Shown here: in pieces, positions 43,552 to 50,850 of the stretch
Numbering within the stretch: the first letter of the stretch is position 1
Layout: each line of letters opens with the position of its first letter
Sequence record: OZ035849
Source: Escherichia phage vB_Eco_BGP
Strand: one strand, 5' to 3'
DNA: 64,000 nt
Program-made: the position numbers and the translations under genes
Notes under the pieces: model-generated
What the model was told of the DNA's origin: nothing
What the model saw: only the letters and a program-made list of their open reading frames with translations
The model's database searches: none

Positions 43552-43775
43552 TGAGATATAGCATTGATGATGCTTTTAATTATGAAGAAGAATTTGAAAC
43601 GGAAATTCAATTCTTAATGAAAAAGCATAATCTTAAGCGTCAGGATATTCGTATCCTGGCCGACCACCCGTGCGGTGAAGATGTCCTTTATATTAAAGGA
43701 AAATTTGCCGGATATCTTGATGAATATTTTTATTCTAAAGATATGGGCATTGATATGCATATGAGAGTTGTATAA
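43551..43775 (+). CDS. hypothetical protein (uvsY.-1-like)
   Basis: 74 aa ORF, ATGA overlap with uvsY stop. Confidence 0.7.
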   Translation: MRYSIDDAFNYEEEFETEIQFLMKKHNLKRQDIRILADHPCGEDVLYIKGKFAGYLDEYFYSKDMGIDMHMRVV

Positions 43776-43803
43776 ATAGATATATAATTCAGAGGAGACA
43801 ATC

Positions 43804-43971
43804 ATGTCAGATAAGATTTGTGTTGTCTGTAAAACTCCAATCGATTCTGCATTGGTTGTTGAAACAGACAAAGGTCCTGTACATCCTGGGCCTTGCTATA
43901 ATTACATTAAAGAACTACCAGTTTCAGAAAGTTCGGAAGAACAATTAAATGAAACACAACTTTTGCTATAG
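43804..43971 (+). CDS. small Cys-containing hypothetical protein (uvsY.-2-like)
   Basis: 55 aa from ATG 43804 after SD GAGGAG; MSDKICVVCKTPIDS...; TATAAATA at 43771-43778; below ORF-track cutoff. Confidence 0.55.
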   Translation: MSDKICVVCKTPIDSALVVETDKGPVHPGPCYNYIKELPVSESSEEQLNETQLLL

Positions 43972-44026
43972 TGTGACCTTTAGTCTATAGTTTTGGCCCT
44001 TCCTTTTTGGTTGGGCCTTTTTTAAT

Positions 44027-44269
44027 TTAAAAGCTTTCTTCTACTTCATCGTCTGAATCTTCTAATTCAGCTCTTTTTCCTGCCAAAGCATCTCTTACAG
44101 AGATGTCATCAGTATCTTTTAATTCAGTTTCTTTGACTCTTTTCTTATAATAAGCTTCAAGTTCTTCTAAACCTTCTAATGTTTGACAAGAGGCAATTTT
44201 ACCCATAAATTCATCAATAGAAGCTTCATAAAGAAATTGTTTAAATCCTAGTAACATCTTTTTCTCCAA
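44027..44269 (-). CDS. UvsW.1 small acidic protein
   Basis: 80 aa ORF immediately downstream of uvsW on the same strand. Confidence 0.75.
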   Translation of the reverse strand: MEKKMLLGFKQFLYEASIDEFMGKIASCQTLEGLEELEAYYKKRVKETELKDTDDISVRDALAGKRAELEDSDDEVEESF

Positions 44270-44282
44270 AGGGCCGAAGCCC

Positions 44283-45794
44283 TTATAAATTAACTGTTTT
44301 CATTACGTAATTAAATTTTTCATCTGCGTAGCGCTGAATACGATCAATGCCGTGTTTTAAAAGATAGTTCAAATGAACATATTTCTTTTTCGTATTAGCA
44401 GATTTTGGCTTAACGCCCGCGTCATCTATAAGATCCCAGACTGTTGCTATTGTCTTAGAACCATGCTTACGTAATACACGACCGATTGTTTGTAATACAA
44501 TGATTTTTGATTTAACACCGTGCGCTAAAACAACGTGATGTAGATTTTTAACTGAAATACCAGTAGAAAATACACCATAACTAGCTACTATAATTATTCC
44601 TTTACCATTTTCAGCTAAGGTTTTCATTATATTGCGGGTTTCGGTATCAACTTCCCCTGATACGTAATAAACTTTATCGTATTCATTTTTAATTAAATCG
44701 AAAATAGCTTTACCATGCGATACATGTTTAAACATGACAAAAGCGTTTTCATCTTTTTGTGCAAGCTTAATAGCTAATTTAGCGATCCATTTATTTCTTT
44801 TACTGAGCCCAGTAATAATTTTTATTTCTTCTTGGTAAGTTTTTCCCTTTAATTTAGTAGTGAACTCATCGGGATAGCGAAGAAAAATACTATTAATTTT
44901 TAACTCAGTTACTTGTCCATCTTCCATTAATTTAGAGGTCGTTACTGGCTTAAATATTTCACCAAACATTCCAACATACTGCATGATATTGGCTTTGCCG
45001 TCACGTAATGAACCAGACAAACCAAATTTAAACATACAGTTATTTAAACCTGATATGATAGATGAAATACTTTTTCCTGTAGCAAGATGGCATTCATCAT
45101 TCATCATCATTCCAAACTGTGAGAACCATTCTTTCGGTTGTTTTACTACAGTTTGCCATGTACCAACAACGACTGGTGCATCATTTTTATATTTATCATC
45201 TTTTGATGCTCCGCCACCAATTTTCTTTATCATTGCATGACTGAATAGACGATAGTCGACGAAGTCATCAGCCATCTGAGTTGTCAGAGCAGTTGTTGGA
45301 ACAATGATAAGAATTTTACCTTCATAATTTTCCAAATAATATCGCGCAAGCAAAGCTTGAATTAACGATTTACCAGCGGATGTTGGAAGATTAAGAATTC
45401 TACGACGATTAACTAATCCTTCGAACACTGCATCTTTTTGATACCAGTGTGGTTCAATTCTTTTATTTCCTGAATAGATTTCTAATTTAGAAAGCCATTC
45501 ATCAAAATCTTTTCTTGATAATTCTTCTTTTTCATTAATTTGTGGGTCAATCCAGGCTTTATAGCCAAAGTTATCACAGAACTTTTTAATTTGCCCGACT
45601 AAGCCGAATGGAAGAAGACGATTATAATCTAAAAGACGGATTCGTCCATCCCAGTGGCCATATCTGTACTTCGGATTAAAACGATACCCATCAGCTTCAA
45701 AGCTAAAGAAATCACGGAGTTCATGAAATGTACTTTCTTCACAATCAATTCTCACGTGACTAAAATCATAAAAATGTACTTTAATGTCAGTCAT
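44283..45794 (-). CDS. uvsW: UvsW SF2 DNA helicase
   Basis: 503 aa; Walker A LPTSAGKS, DECH box (MMNDECHLAT); same length as T4 UvsW. Confidence 0.95.
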   Translation of the reverse strand: MTDIKVHFYDFSHVRIDCEESTFHELRDFFSFEADGYRFNPKYRYGHWDGRIRLLDYNRLLPFGLVGQIKKFCDNFGYKAWIDPQINEKEELSRKDFDEWLSKLEIYSGNKRIEPHWYQKDAVFEGLVNRRRILNLPTSAGKSLIQALLARYYLENYEGKILIIVPTTALTTQMADDFVDYRLFSHAMIKKIGGGASKDDKYKNDAPVVVGTWQTVVKQPKEWFSQFGMMMNDECHLATGKSISSIISGLNNCMFKFGLSGSLRDGKANIMQYVGMFGEIFKPVTTSKLMEDGQVTELKINSIFLRYPDEFTTKLKGKTYQEEIKIITGLSKRNKWIAKLAIKLAQKDENAFVMFKHVSHGKAIFDLIKNEYDKVYYVSGEVDTETRNIMKTLAENGKGIIIVASYGVFSTGISVKNLHHVVLAHGVKSKIIVLQTIGRVLRKHGSKTIATVWDLIDDAGVKPKSANTKKKYVHLNYLLKHGIDRIQRYADEKFNYVMKTVNL

Positions 45795-45844
45795 GTCTAA
45801 ATACCATGTAATAAATATATCTATATTTATACTGAGGAAATATT

Positions 45845-46525
45845 ATGATAGATAAAGATTATATTGCAGAGCTGAAGGCTCTTGATGATAACAAAGAAGC
45901 TAAAGCTAAATTAGCTGAATATGCTGAACAGTTTGGTATAAAGGTCAAAAAGAATAAATCTTTTGATAATATCGTTGTTGATATTGAAGAAGCCCTCCAG
46001 AAGCTCGCTAGTGAACCTATGCCAGAGACTGATGGGTTATCTATTAAAGACTTAATTGATGCTGCTGATGCTGCAGAGGGATTAAAATATGACGATGAAG
46101 AAGTCAATCCAGAAGCAGCACTTCTGATTGATTCTCCGGTTAAATCTGACATTAAAATTGAAGTAGTAGAAACGGATAAAATTCCTGAAAATACCGATGT
46201 TTTGATTGAAGATACTCCTTTTGTTGAAGAAAAATTCGAGCAGGCTGTAGCTGAGATTATTGAATCTGAAAAGCTGTCTGTATTTACTCTTCCGGAAAAC
46301 TTTAGTCCGAATCTTCAGCTGATTGGAAAAAATCCAGGATTCTGCACCGTTCCTTGGTGGATTTACCAGTGGATTGCTGAAACTCCGGATTGGAAATCTC
46401 ACCCAACTAGTTTTGAGCATGCGTCAGCACACCAAACTTTATTTAGCTTAATTTATTACATTAACCGTGACGGATCAGTTTTAATTCGTGAAACACGCAA
46501 TTCTTCTTTCGTAACATTAAAATAA
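45845..46525 (+). CDS. inh: Inh, inhibitor of prohead protease
   Basis: 226 aa, same length as T4 Inh; synteny beside hoc. Confidence 0.9.
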   Translation: MIDKDYIAELKALDDNKEAKAKLAEYAEQFGIKVKKNKSFDNIVVDIEEALQKLASEPMPETDGLSIKDLIDAADAAEGLKYDDEEVNPEAALLIDSPVKSDIKIEVVETDKIPENTDVLIEDTPFVEEKFEQAVAEIIESEKLSVFTLPENFSPNLQLIGKNPGFCTVPWWIYQWIAETPDWKSHPTSFEHASAHQTLFSLIYYINRDGSVLIRETRNSSFVTLK

Positions 46526-46534
46526 GGATAACTT

Positions 46535-47953
46535 ATGACTTTTACAGTTGATATAACTCCTAAAACACCTACTGGAGTTATAGATCAGACTCAGCAGTTT
46601 ACTGCTACACCCAGTGGTCAAACTGGAGATGGACCTATTACATATGCTTGGACTGTAGACGACGCTCCACAGGAAGAAACGTCAGCAACTTTTAGTTATG
46701 TACTAAAAGGACCTGCCGGTCAAAAGACTATTAAAGTAGTTGCAACCAATCAAGTTGCAGAATCTGAACCTGAAACAGCTGAAATTAGTACAACTATCAC
46801 AGTTCAAAATAAAACTCAGTCAACTACGTTGGCAGTAACTCCTGGTAGCCCTGATGCTGGAGTGATTGGAACCCCAGTTCAATTTACCGCTGCCTTAGCT
46901 TCACAGCCATCAGGTGCAAACGCTACGTATCAATGGCACGTTGACGGTTCTCCTGTAGACGAAGCAACTGACGCTACATTCAATTACACTCCTGACACAA
47001 GCGGAGTTAAAAAAATCAAGTGTGTAGCTCAAGTAACTGCGGCAGATTATGATACACTAAGCGTTACTTCTAATGAAGTATCACTGACTGTTAATAAAAA
47101 GACGCAGACGACTACTTTGGCAGTAACTCCTGATAGTCCTCCAGCAGGAGTAATTGGAACCCCAGTTCAATTTACTGCTGCCTTAGCTTCGCAGCCGCTA
47201 GGAGCATCTGCTACGTATCAGTGGTATGTAGATGATTCACAAGTTGGTGGAGAAACTACTACTACATTTAACTATACTCCTACCACAGTTGGAGCTAAAA
47301 CAGTTAAGTGTGTAGCGCAAGTAACTGCAGAAAATTACAATGAAAAGGAAGTTACTTCTAATGAAGTATCATTAACAGTTAATAAGAAAACAATGAATCC
47401 ACGGGTTACATTGACTCCTCCTTCTATTAACGTTCAGCAAGATGCTTCGGCTACATTTACTGCTAATGTTACGGATGCTCCAGAAGAAGCACAAATCGAA
47501 TATTCATGGAAGAAAGATTCTTCTCCAGTAGAAGGGTCAACTAATGTATACACTGTTGATACATCATCTATTGGAAGTCAAACTATTGAAGTTACTGCAA
47601 CTGTTACTGCTACTGATTATGATAGCAAAACTATCACAGCAGAAGGTCAAGTTCAGGTAACTGATAAAGTTGCTCCAGAACCAGAAGGTGAATTGCCTTA
47701 TGTTCATCCTCTTCCACATCGCACTTCAGCTTACATCTGGTGCGGTTGGTGGGTTATGGATGAAATCCAAAAAATGACTGAAGAAGGTAAAGATTGGAAA
47801 ACTGAAGATCCAGATAGTAAATACTACCTGCATCGTTACACTCTTCAGAAGATGATGAAAGACTATCCAGAAGTTGATGTCCAAGAATCGCGTAATGGAT
47901 ACATCATTCATAAAACTGCTTTAGAAACTGGTATCATCTATACCTATCCATAA
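46535..47953 (+). CDS. hoc: Hoc outer capsid decoration protein, extended form with an extra Ig-like domain
   Basis: 472 aa (T4 Hoc ~376 aa); N- and C-terminal sequences as T4 Hoc; internal 96-aa Ig-like unit present twice in tandem. Confidence 0.92.
   Translation: MTFTVDITPKTPTGVIDQTQQFTATPSGQTGDGPITYAWTVDDAPQEETSATFSYVLKGPAGQKTIKVVATNQVAESEPETAEISTTITVQNKTQSTTLAVTPGSPDAGVIGTPVQFTAALASQPSGANATYQWHVDGSPVDEATDATFNYTPDTSGVKKIKCVAQVTAADYDTLSVTSNEVSLTVNKKTQTTTLAVTPDSPPAGVIGTPVQFTAALASQPLGASATYQWYVDDSQVGGETTTTFNYTPTTVGAKTVKCVAQVTAENYNEKEVTSNEVSLTVNKKTMNPRVTLTPPSINVQQDASATFTANVTDAPEEAQIEYSWKKDSSPVEGSTNVYTVDTSSIGSQTIEVTATVTATDYDSKTITAEGQVQVTDKVAPEPEGELPYVHPLPHRTSAYIWCGWWVMDEIQKMTEEGKDWKTEDPDSKYYLHRYTLQKMMKDYPEVDVQESRNGYIIHKTALETGIIYTYP
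46811..47386 (+). repeat. tandem duplication (2 x 288 bp) inside hoc encoding two copies of an Ig-like domain
   Basis: ttggcagtaactcct... recurs with a 288-nt period (46829 and 47117); encoded units QTTTLAVTP...EVSLTVNKKT ~75-80% identical. Confidence 0.85.
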
Positions 47954-47958
47954 TCATA

Positions 47959-47980
47959 AGGGGCTTCGGCCCCTTTCTTC
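47959..47980 (+). terminator. rho-independent terminator after hoc
   Basis: aggggcttcggcccct hairpin followed by ttctt. Confidence 0.7.
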
Positions 47981-48042
47981 ATTTTGAAAGCACACAAAAC
48001 ACACTCAGAAAATGATGTATATAATGGCACCAACTCGATAAC

Positions 48043-48258
48043 ATGAGATTGATTATGAGAACTGAGGTTGTGGTGTTTACTCTCCATGAGTCTGGAAAGT
48101 CATTCATTGAAATTGCTCGTGAATTGAACTTACAGGCAAAAGAGGTGGCTGTATTATGGGCTCGAGCTATGACTGCTAAGAATAAATTTGAAACTCGAGA
48201 AAAAGTTGTCTATAGAAAAAGACATATCAATAAAAAGGTGAAAAATGGAACAGTATGA
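48043..48258 (+). CDS. hypothetical protein
   Basis: 71 aa ORF; start uncertain (alternative ATG 48055). Confidence 0.55.
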   Translation: MRLIMRTEVVVFTLHESGKSFIEIARELNLQAKEVAVLWARAMTAKNKFETREKVVYRKRHINKKVKNGTV

Positions 48259-48523
48259 TCTTTATGAAAATGAATCTTTTGCTAATCAATTACGCGAAAA
48301 AGCATTCAAAAGTAAACAGTTTAAGCTAGAGTGTTTTATTAAAGATTTTTCGGAACTTGCTAATAAAGCAGCTGAACAAGGTAAAACACATTTTAATTAT
48401 TATTGTACTGCTCGCGATAAATTGATTACTGAAGAAATTGGTGATTGGCTGAGAAAAGAAGGATTCAGCTTTAAAGTTAATAGTGATCAGCGTGATGGTG
48501 ATTGGTTAGAAATTACATTTTGA
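48245..48523 (+). CDS. hypothetical protein
   Basis: 92 aa ORF upstream of rnlB. Confidence 0.65.
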   Translation: MEQYDLYENESFANQLREKAFKSKQFKLECFIKDFSELANKAAEQGKTHFNYYCTARDKLITEEIGDWLRKEGFSFKVNSDQRDGDWLEITF

Positions 48524-48532
48524 GGATTAATT

Positions 48533-49537
48533 ATGTTTAAAAAGTATAGCAGTCTTGAAAATCATTACAACTCTAAATTTATTGAAAAACTTTATAGCTT
48601 GGGATTGACTGGCGGCGAATGGGTAGCTCGTGAAAAGATTCACGGCACAAATTTCTCATTGATTATTGAGCGTGATAAAGTAACTTGCGCTAAACGTACT
48701 GGACCAATTCTTCCTGCTGAAGATTTCTTCGGTTATGAAATTATTTTAAAGAATTACGAAGATTCTATTAAAGCTGTCCAAGAAATTATGGAAACTTCAG
48801 CTGTTGTGACTTATCAAGTTTTTGGCGAATTCGCTGGACCTGGCATTCAGAAGAATGTTGATTATGGCGATAAAGATTTTTATGTATTTGACATTATTGT
48901 CACTACCGAAAGTGGTGATGTAACTTATGTTGATGATTACATGATGGAATCGTTTTGTAATTCATTTGGGTTTAAAATCGCTCCACTTTTGGGTCGTGGT
49001 AAATTTGAAGATCTTATTAAACTTCCAAATGATTTGGATTCTGTTGTTCCGTCTTATAATTTTACCGTAGATAATGCAGGTTTAATTGACGCTAACAAAT
49101 GTGTTTGGAAAGCTGAAGCCAAAGGCGAAGTATTTACCGCTGAAGGATATGTATTGAAACCTTGTTATCCTTCTTGGCTGCCTAATCGCAATCGTGTAGC
49201 CATCAAATGCAAGAATTCTAAATTTAGTGAAAAGAAAAAGTCTGATAAGCCTATTAAAGCTAAAGTTGAACTGTCAGAAGCTGATAACAAATTGGTGGGG
49301 ATTTTAGCTTGTTACGTTACACTAAACCGAGTAAATAACGTTATTTCTAAAATTGGCGAAATTGGTCCAAAAGATTTTGGAAAGGTGATGGGACTAACTG
49401 TTCAAGATATTTTGGAAGAAACTTCTCGTGAAGGTATTACTCTAACTCAAGCGGATAATCCTTCTTTGATTAAAAAGGAATTAGTTAAAATGGTACAAGA
49501 TGTACTTCGTCCGGCTTGGATTGAATTGGTAAGTTAA
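48533..49537 (+). CDS. rnlB: RNA ligase 2
   Basis: 334 aa, [45 protein letters not shown]..., ligase lysine motif KIHGTN; as T4 Rnl2. Confidence 0.95.
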
Positions 49538-49544
49538 ATAAAAA

Positions 49545-49560
49545 GGGACCGAAAGGTCCC
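49545..49560. terminator. bidirectional GC hairpin between rnlB and gene 24
   Basis: gggaccgaaaggtccc perfect hairpin between convergent genes. Confidence 0.7.
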
Positions 49561-49566
49561 TTTGTT

Positions 49567-50850
49567 TTATTCATCAATGATAATTTTTGGTAGCTTAACA
49601 CCTAATAAAACAGACAAATCTGAACGACCCGCCATTTTATCCATGTCTCCACCATCAATTACTCTTGCTTCTTTTTCATCTTTTGCTACGGTGTAAGGAT
49701 TTGCAGATAAAGCATATCTAACTAATAAACCGATAGATGGCTGCAAACTTTCTGGGTCAACAACAACTTTAAATGCACCTACATGTTCAGGGTCATCTAA
49801 GTCGAGACCTTCTGTATACGGAGCATAGAAAATTGATCCAACAATTTCTTTTTCACCGATATTTTCTACTACACCAACGATTACATAATCTAATGGGCTG
49901 TTAGTATCGCAATAAAGCGGTAAACCATTAGCTAAGAACCCGTAGGCATTTTGTGAAAGATATTTATCATCTTCTGGTTTATGTTTTAACCAACCTGATG
50001 CAGCAAGAATCGCAGCGGCACGAGCAGAAGCAACACAGAACGTTGCTGTATAAGTTGATTCTTTTTGGATATGTGAAACCATTTCACATACCATTCGGTA
50101 TAATGAACGACCTGCTTCAGGAGCAGATGCATAACTCAAATCGATGAATCCAGTATCAGTAATTCCTGTAACTTTATAGCGTTTTGACACTGTAATCAAA
50201 GACTGCAGAATATCTTTATTGATTTCATCTGCCATTTCGGTTGCAAGCAAATCTTCCAAGAAATTAGGAGCATCGAATCCATTTGCTTCTAAATCTTGTG
50301 CTAATTCAACTGTAATGCCAGTTTTAAGTTTACGAGATTTAACTGCGGTTTGCCATTTATTAATCTGGAATCTAGCATCCGCAATTTCACTATCAGAGCT
50401 TTCAAATTTGCTTGTTACTGCAGCATCAGAAAATAGACGAACCTTTAAAAGAACAATTGCAATCTGAAGAGCTAATTCTAAATCACTTTCTTCAATATCA
50501 GCAAATGGTGTATCTTCTAATACTTTATAAACGATATTATTATATTTGAATAAATCGCCTTTATTGAGAGTTAATTTAGACTCTTCTGTTAATTCTGTGA
50601 TTTGTTCTCGATCTACATATCCAGCTTCGCCGGCATAAGTAGCACCAGTTTTAAATGTAAATTCATTGTCTGGGTTAAGGTATTTGATACCATAAAAAGC
50701 AGCAACAGGTTGATTAGTTCTTTGCGTTGCTACAATGTCAGAATATATTAATTTAGTGGTAGCGCGAGTCAAAGCAACGAGATTTGGGCGACCGATTGAG
50801 TTGCTATTCGTTGTGGTTGATTCGCGCAGAAGTTCGTTGATTTTAGCCAT
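49567..50850 (-). CDS. 24: head vertex protein gp24
   Basis: 427 aa, same length as T4 gp24; paralogous to gp23. Confidence 0.95.
   Translation of the reverse strand: MAKINELLRESTTTNSNSIGRPNLVALTRATTKLIYSDIVATQRTNQPVAAFYGIKYLNPDNEFTFKTGATYAGEAGYVDREQITELTEESKLTLNKGDLFKYNNIVYKVLEDTPFADIEESDLELALQIAIVLLKVRLFSDAAVTSKFESSDSEIADARFQINKWQTAVKSRKLKTGITVELAQDLEANGFDAPNFLEDLLATEMADEINKDILQSLITVSKRYKVTGITDTGFIDLSYASAPEAGRSLYRMVCEMVSHIQKESTYTATFCVASARAAAILAASGWLKHKPEDDKYLSQNAYGFLANGLPLYCDTNSPLDYVIVGVVENIGEKEIVGSIFYAPYTEGLDLDDPEHVGAFKVVVDPESLQPSIGLLVRYALSANPYTVAKDEKEARVIDGGDMDKMAGRSDLSVLLGVKLPKIIIDE

Follow-up and report, generated by a model that had tools for sequence, protein, structure and literature searches.

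The hoc gene in the stretch of Escherichia phage vB_Eco_BGP DNA analysed here (64,000 nt from record OZ035849; hereafter, the window) is very probably the two-unit allele of an array of Ig-like modules that varies in copy number among the Hoc proteins of Tequatrovirus. The array is laid out as D1, one, two or three D2 units, D3 and a capsid-binding domain, which yields proteins of 376, 472 or 568 aa, respectively. The extra D2 unit of the window is a common allele that is present in many public genomes, and variation in domain number is already known from this family. In T4, Hoc forms the capsid fibre that has been implicated in adhesion to mucus and bacterial surfaces; as a display scaffold, it is in wide use for vaccines and vectors. 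The present analysis adds the series of D2 unit numbers together with a form that lacks D3, old unit types combined with an apparently labile copy number, and an independent duplication of D3 in Klebsiella phages.

The hoc locus

The gene order around hoc, uvsW / inh / hoc / DUF2774 / Y10B / rnlB, is that of T4 (open reading frames compared with the T4 annotation), with hoc located between inh and 24.3 / 24.2 / rnlB as in T4 and related loci. The features of the locus are as follows.

44283-45794, minus strand: uvsW (open reading frame list)
45845..46525, plus strand: inh, prohead protease inhibitor, ending 9 nt before hoc (open reading frame list, T4 annotation)
46535..47953, plus strand: hoc, 472-aa highly immunogenic outer capsid protein, stop codon included (open reading frame list)
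47958..47985, plus strand: intrinsic-terminator-like hairpin (AAGGGGC-TTCG-GCCCCTT) with a T-rich tail, directly after hoc (terminator scan)

The encoded protein matches PHROG 1149 at E=1e-146 and T4 Hoc in the PDB (5vf3_Z, 376 aa) at E=3.8e-220, and its C-terminus is matched by PHROGs 1149, 21694, 14282 and 11091, all of which are labelled 'Hoc-like head decoration'. Thus, the profile, the structure database and the T4 gene order concur with the identification as Hoc that had been made in a sequence-only reading of the window. The Pfam domains Phage_Inh_N and Phage_Inh_C were found on the inh product of a metagenome contig (L023), which is identical to that of the window. The hairpin after hoc consists of 7 pairs, 5 of them G-C, and is a consensus match only; no exact match to the T4 late promoter TATAAATA was found on the plus strand between 45700 and 48200, near inh and hoc. 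Over 22 kb, the window shares ~98% identity with UoN_LDJ77_1, vB_Eco_Geo, fPS-90, Lutter and Kelasse, without an exact match to any of these; the segment belongs to a T4-type (Tequatrovirus) genome.

A 288-bp in-frame tandem repeat

Tandem Repeats Finder reported one array, at 46823-47385, with a period of 288, 2.0 copies, 77% matches and 1% indels. An ungapped repeat search paired 46799-47049 with 47087-47337 (76%) and 47063-47103 with 47351-47391 (88%), both at a spacing of 288 nt. In codon register, the two units are identical at 219/288 nt (76%) and 72/96 aa (75%); given that the highest in-frame 288-nt self-match at other offsets reaches 42%, the repeat is far beyond chance. The components of the repeat are listed below.

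46817..47104, plus strand: D2 unit 1, aa 95-190, of the 'first-unit' type; the extra domain relative to T4
47063..47103, plus strand: conserved 3' end of unit 1 (VTSNEVSLTVNKK), 88% identical to 47351-47391
47105..47392, plus strand: D2 unit 2, aa 191-286, of the 'later-unit' type; the closer counterpart of T4 D2
47351..47391, plus strand: conserved 3' end of unit 2, partner of 47063-47103 (repeat search)

The in-frame 288-nt tandem duplication at roughly 75-80% identity that the sequence-only reading had described is therefore real, with 76% identity at the DNA level in codon register. The extent proposed for it, 46811-47386, covers the same repeat but is off in phase by 6 nt, the codon register being 46817-47392. 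The period is a multiple of 3, the copies are arranged head-to-tail without a spacer, and the unit corresponds to one domain, that is, the arrangement is an in-frame tandem duplication of a domain. Both units are free of stop codons and of indels at the codon level, so both copies are intact. Between the two units of the window, codons 85-96 show zero non-synonymous changes, and these conserved unit ends, 47063-47103 and 47351-47391, are a likely substrate for unequal homologous recombination.

The hoc gene of T4 (NC_000866) spans 1131 bp and encodes 376 aa. T4 Hoc aligns with the window protein in two blocks, window residues 1-128 with T4 1-128 and window residues 189-472 with T4 93-376, and therefore the window protein contains exactly one extra 96-aa unit. 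The length difference given in the earlier reading, 472 against 376 aa, is thus accounted for by a single 96-aa unit in both NC_000866 and the PDB alignment, and T4, with its one D2 unit, does not already have the domain count of the window.

Predicted domain architecture

Outside the two D2 units, the protein comprises three further domains.

46535..46816, plus strand: Ig-like domain 1 (D1), aa 1-94; beta-sandwich in the AlphaFold2 model, pLDDT ~90-95; aligns with T4 Hoc 1-94
47393..47662, plus strand: Ig-like domain 3 (D3), aa 287-376; beta-sandwich in the AlphaFold2 model; aligns with T4 Hoc 191-280
47663..47950, plus strand: C-terminal capsid-binding domain, aa 377-472; nearly identical to T4 Hoc 281-376

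An AlphaFold2 model of the window Hoc, built on 38 homologs, contains four beta-sandwiches, with pLDDT ~90 across residues 1-376; residues 95-190 and 191-286 display the same strand pattern, in blocks of pLDDT 89-96. The C-terminal domain is modelled with low confidence because the alignment is shallow in this region; by sequence, it is homologous to residues 281-376 of T4 Hoc, which have been defined as the capsid-binding domain (Fokine et al. 2023, PMC10385173). Among the Pfam profiles, PKD (PF00801, clan E-set) matches two stretches, the best at aa 195-265, with E=2.1e-10 and 40.9 bits (cutoff, 23.5), such that the repeated unit scores above the curated threshold for an Ig-like/PKD domain. 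BiPBP_C also scores above its cutoff (32 bits against 26.8), several Ig families match more weakly than PKD, and the matches of Ig_3 / I-set at aa 289-373 fall under the gathering cutoff. The top PDB matches found by Foldseek are the four-Ig proteins Sidekick, Dscam and ICAM-5 D1-D4, with a tandem-Ig adhesin also among the best, all at E ~1e-12.

The model, the Foldseek matches and the PKD matches all indicate an N-terminal string of Ig-like domains. In this predicted architecture, the window Hoc consists of four Ig-like domains followed by a T4-type capsid-binding domain, and each D2 unit is predicted to form a complete, independent Ig/PKD-like beta-sandwich. Accordingly, the proposal that the extra unit is a complete Ig-like domain holds at the level of prediction.

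Two-unit alleles are common in Tequatrovirus

A megablast search with the window hoc gene matched 656 phage records. Nearly all of the best-first matches listed are a single 1419-bp piece at 94-97.7% identity, and they include Kelasse, ime09, teqsoen, fPS-90, HP3, pSs-1 and phiD1, whose 472-aa Hocs (cluster P0009) are identical to that of the window in architecture and length, with only allelic differences (up to 98% protein identity). The proportions of the unit numbers come from one sample taken at even steps down the megablast ranking, in which 54 Tequatrovirus records could be classified.

1 D2 unit, ~1131 bp: 38/54 sampled records (T4, T2, T6, RB6, RB18)
2 D2 units, ~1419 bp: 14/54 sampled records
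3 D2 units, ~1707 bp, 568 aa: 2/54 sampled records

The two-unit form thus accounts for ~26% of the sampled Tequatrovirus records, across many named species and hosts, and with about a quarter of the sampled T4-type phages sharing it, the feature of the window is an ordinary variant. The novelty of the extra domain that the earlier reading implied does not survive this comparison, in which 568-aa alleles are found as well. The best 120 protein clusters show the same range of lengths, with 74 at 376 aa, 29 at 472 aa and 8 at 568-570 aa. Three D2 units were verified in the isolates OMNI12 and UGKSEcP2, and the Hoc of RPN187 (283 aa) consists of D1, one D2 unit and the capsid-binding domain, without D3, an architecture published for PhiPNJ-9 (Fu et al. 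2024, PMC11853027). The 2072-bp hoc span of KNP5, considered as a larger array, was rejected because it contains a 990-N assembly gap.

Homologs of Hoc have been reported to contain 1 to 10 Ig-like domains (PMC10385173). In Fokine 2023, Wu 2024, Fu 2024, two Hoc papers from 2026 and a paper on the evolution of the T4 virion, we found no explicit mention of the 472-aa form or of the D2 duplication series, only general statements on variable domain number.

Age, selection and mosaicism of the D2 units

The two units of the window differ by dS 0.755 and dN 0.18. Divergence within and between the unit classes, computed across a small panel, is given below along with that of the flanking domains.

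Among first-position units: dS 0.10, dN/dS 0.28
Among later-position units: dS 0.42, dN/dS 0.20
Between first- and later-position classes: dS 0.92, dN/dS 0.16
Window vs T4, D1: dS 0.34
Window vs T4, D3 and C-terminus: dS 0.27

Because the dS between the classes is 0.92 compared to ~0.3 in the flanks, the unit types must predate the split of the hoc alleles sampled here. Judging from these ratios, both D2 units evolve under purifying selection and neither copy is decaying. Both unit types are also found as the sole D2 of 376-aa Hocs: unit 1 of the window shares 95.5% nucleotide identity with the only unit of phage PYPS2T, and unit 2 shares 92.4% with that of phage Geo. Compared to T4 D2, unit 1 and unit 2 are 79.5% and 84.4% identical, respectively.

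These comparisons bear on the original explanation of the feature, namely, a duplication specific to this lineage, with copies that diverged in place and made this Hoc unusual. Such an origin would fit the 24% divergence of the copies and the one-unit, 1131-bp genes of T4, T2, T6, RB6 and RB18. However, it is extremely improbable given the wide distribution of the 1419-bp gene over species and hosts, the similarity of each unit to its counterpart in PYPS2T or Geo, which is far above that between unit 1 and unit 2, and the between-type dS, which exceeds that of the regions flanking the array in the comparison with T4. The statement that the duplication is 'old enough to have diverged' holds for the unit types, which are ancient (dS ~0.9), but not as a date for the duplication in this lineage. 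Instead, the presence of both types as a sole D2, together with the variation of copy number on the same backbones (see below), indicates that the divergence of the units reflects an old pool of unit types in which reshuffling continues.

The units themselves are patchworks of loop cassettes on a conserved framework. Variable cassettes occupy unit positions 10-13, 20-22, 44-53, 60-68 and 76-82 and recur in different combinations, and at the nucleotide level the units alternate between unit-1-like and unit-2-like tracts. In the window, unit 1 is 100% identical to unit 1 of the three-unit contig L023. Unit 2 equals unit 2 of Kelasse and of L023 up to nt 143-154 and the single unit of Geo from there to its end, with 2 mismatches across the whole hybrid; the cassette set of its 3' half, TTTFNYTPTTVGAKTVK, differs from that of the other 472-aa Hocs and is shared with the Geo unit and the third unit of UGKSEcP2. 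Across 133 distinct units, the predicted loops vary more than the strands (mean entropy 0.63 vs 0.26, p=0.01). Mutagenesis of the DGR type was rejected as the source of this variability because the adenine bias is absent: the 69 sites that differ between the units carry A at 28% in unit 1 or 41% in unit 2, and all substitution classes are represented (43 transitions, 26 transversions).

The hybrid nature of unit 2 raises the question of whether the second unit was produced by mis-assembly of the repeat or by mixing of two co-occurring hoc alleles, given that tandem repeats and strain mixtures can yield chimeric assemblies and that the exact 472-aa protein of the window is absent from the database records. 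We consider such an artefact very improbable: the reading frame runs unbroken through two complete units, the identical length and unit order recur in dozens of isolates that were sequenced independently, and hybrid units are the rule among isolate genomes as well. Moreover, with copies that are only 76% identical, an assembler would not confuse them.

Copy-number change on shared backbones

The case for the two-unit allele of a variable array is strengthened by closely related genomes that differ in the number of units. Phage Geo has one unit, with D1 and D3 plus the C-terminus 100% identical to those of the window, and the metagenome scaffold L023/L030 has three units and is ~98% identical to the window over 20 kb. 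L030 equals the window exactly in a 5.9-kb block, 43674-49577, save for a stretch that begins within unit 2, at 47259, and continues as far as the array does; likewise, five parts of L023 match the window at 100%, namely, D1, unit 1, unit 2 in its first half, D3 and the C-terminus. We rejected the possibility that the window and the three-unit contig are the same genome because the match is perfect only in the 5.9-kb block. From these alleles, the copy number of D2 appears to be labile whereas the unit types are old.

By the proposed mechanism, the conserved unit ends would be sites of unequal homologous recombination, through which D2 arrays grow and shrink, and co-infecting phages would swap loop cassettes by recombination over short tracts. 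One clean unequal crossover linking the alleles was rejected because the units are multi-tract patchworks: the best hybrid of window unit 1 (5' part) and unit 2 (3' part) leaves 15 mismatches to the Geo unit, and the best hybrid of L023 units 2 and 3 leaves 18 mismatches to window unit 2. Among one-unit alleles, 25 combine a first-type 5' cassette with a later-type 3' cassette and 3, including T4, show the opposite arrangement, counted over representatives of 90%-identity clusters, which are not independent events. This asymmetry would be expected if many of the 376-aa alleles are collapsed arrays.

The L030 array comes from a metagenome scaffold and could be mis-assembled. The 25-to-3 asymmetry could also arise from homologous exchange in which cassettes stay linked to D1 or D3.

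Proposed effect on the capsid fibre

T4 Hoc forms a 180-A fibre that is present in 155 copies per capsid, and attachment to E. coli surfaces has been reported for its domains 2 and 3 (PMC10385173), the former being the type that is duplicated in the window. By analogy, the C-terminal domain of the window protein would place a single Hoc in the middle of each gp23* hexamer, as its near identity to the capsid-binding domain of T4 suggests, and the four Ig-like domains would project as a fibre longer than that of T4 by about one domain, or approximately a quarter (an extrapolated ~40-45 A). With the extra unit, the fibre would gain another adhesion surface of the D2 type, with loops that differ from those of the first and one more SLT motif, which plausibly would raise valency or broaden binding to glycans or cell surfaces. 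Thus, by comparison with T4, the most likely outcome would be a longer fibre with a second, loop-divergent adhesion domain.

In the Hoc of PhiPNJ-9, S183/L184/T185 in D2 are needed for binding of MUC2 (fucose) (Fu et al., PMC11853027). The window protein contains two copies of this motif.

47081..47089, plus strand: S183-L184-T185, first SLT copy, in unit 1; numbering matches PMC11853027, putative function by analogy
47369..47377, plus strand: S279-L280-T281, second SLT copy, in unit 2, identified in the sequence; putative function by analogy

Domain 2 alone of the PhiPNJ-6 Hoc failed to bind MUC2, and therefore the doubling of the motif may not matter.

The variation in length could also be real but functionally neutral, with Ig units gained and lost by recombination slippage in a decoration protein that the phage can do without. 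Under laboratory conditions, Hoc is not essential (PMC10385173), some records contain a frameshifted hoc (the gene is annotated in two parts in FriedrichMiescher, and match spans of 1418-1420 bp are found among the records), and forms with one, two and three units, as well as the D3-less form, coexist in close relatives, all of which would be compatible with neutrality. On the other hand, purifying selection acts on both units (dN/dS 0.2-0.28), the framework is invariant and no copy is decaying, the distinct first and later unit types have long been kept in a stable order, variation is concentrated in the loops, and independent duplications appear in phages of another genus (Klebsiella phages). 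In view of this evidence, we regard neutrality as unlikely.

The two-unit allele and its relatives can also be interpreted in adaptive terms, with the D2 array acting as a fast-evolving, contingency-like adhesin module in which old unit types stay in fixed order whereas their number (1-3) and cassettes are reshuffled by recombination over ecological time. The basis for this suggestion, which we put forward tentatively and hold to be doubtful, is the occurrence of one-, two- and three-unit arrays on identical backbones inside the identical 5.9-kb block. If true, it would enable T4-like phages to adjust the length, valency and glycan specificity of the fibre to different mucosal or bacterial surfaces. 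From a practical standpoint, the Hoc scaffold tolerates whole Ig modules inserted between D1 and D3, and the natural alleles with one, two and three units, along with the D3-less form, provide a ready series for testing fibre length and valency against mucosal retention and phage-therapy efficacy.

Comparison with other Hoc proteins

T4 Hoc (NP_049793; PDB 5vf3, 8t1x; 376 aa) shares with the window protein the gene position and the fibre architecture of an Ig string; the two are orthologous in D1, D3 and the capsid-binding domain (85-91% nucleotide identity) and D2 is of the same type, with one unit in T4 versus two in the window. T4 D2 is closer to unit 2 of the window, yet carries a 3' cassette (TDYDALS) of the first-unit type. 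The 568-570-aa Hocs (OMNI12, UGKSEcP1, UGKSEcP2 and the contig L023/L030) have the same unit order but three D2 units, that is, five Ig-like domains. The D3-less proteins of PhiPNJ-9 and RPN187 (283 aa) share D1, a D2 unit and the capsid-binding domain with the window and have one domain fewer, the variable module in this case being D3 rather than D2.

Beyond Tequatrovirus, the Hocs of Klebsiella T4-like phages (Marfa, 471 aa; relatives of 282, 377 and 471-472 aa) belong to the same family, have the same capsid-binding domain and are likewise polymorphic in domain number via tandem duplication of an Ig unit. In Marfa, whose protein is ~47% identical to that of the window, the duplicated unit is of the D3 type (65/80 identical at a 94-aa offset), and this duplication is an independent event in another lineage. 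The Hoc homolog of Serratia phage Muldoon (1174 aa, 10 Ig-like domains; PMC10385173) resembles the window protein in combining a C-terminal anchor with a variable Ig string but, according to the published description, has far more domains and a distant sequence.

Mosaicism of the hoc region

Over 5.9 kb (window 43674-49577), the window and L030, a metagenomic T4-like scaffold with three D2 units, are perfectly identical, the identity being broken only within the D2 array, and outside this block L030 shows 97-98% identity to the window. The block, which comprises uvsW, inh, hoc and rnlB, looks like a mosaic segment that was exchanged recently.

Hoc loci of related phages (coordinates within each locus)
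L031, 801-1652: hoc of Escherichia phage vB_EcoM-RPN187, 283 aa, consisting of D1, a single D2 unit and the capsid-binding domain, with D3 missing
L007, 1501-2916: hoc of Klebsiella phage Marfa, with a D3-type unit in tandem duplicate (65/80 aa identical)
L025, 934-2646: hoc of phage UGKSEcP2, a 570-aa allele with a 2-aa insertion in a D1 loop
L029, 1733-2722: hoc of Shigella phage KNP5, interrupted in the reference record by 990 consecutive N

The RPN187 record is classed as Mosigvirus, yet the hoc that it carries belongs to the Tequatrovirus type, with 88.5% nucleotide identity to the window; this combination hints at exchange between genera.

The segE homing-endonuclease gene is absent from the uvsW-inh intergenic region of the window (45795-45844), as it is in Kelasse, Geo and the metagenomic locus L023, whereas T4, PYPS2T and contig L024 carry segE between uvsW and inh. 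Speculatively, homing-associated co-conversion in adjoining DNA might contribute to the mosaicism of hoc.

Length variation and disrupted alleles

The Klebsiella T4-like phages form their own series of Hoc lengths, with 282, 377 and 471-472 aa (L006, L007, L008 and L012). The D1 loop with the insertion in UGKSEcP2 reads …ESEAEPETAE… versus …ESEAETAE…, and several one-unit hoc alleles on record encode 379 aa; thus, variation in Hoc length also stems from small indels in loops.

In several phage records (MZ501066, FriedrichMiescher; MZ234018; MZ234042; LC465543), the two-unit hoc measures 1418 or 1420 bp, and these genes are frameshifted, the annotation being split into two coding sequences ('Hoc part 1 / part 2'). 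Such frameshifts are consistent either with sequencing errors or with Hoc being dispensable when the phages are propagated in the laboratory. Because of the N run in KNP5, the annotated 'Hoc-like head decoration' of that phage is a mere 3' fragment.

Putative transcription signals near hoc

The T4 late-promoter motif TATAAATA has no exact match on the plus strand of window 45700-48200. The uvsW-inh spacer (window 45795-45850) contains TATTTATA; read on the minus strand, this gives TATAAATA, directed towards uvsW. Directly 3' of hoc (window 47958-47985), the sequence can form a strong hairpin that resembles a terminator and has TTCG as its loop.
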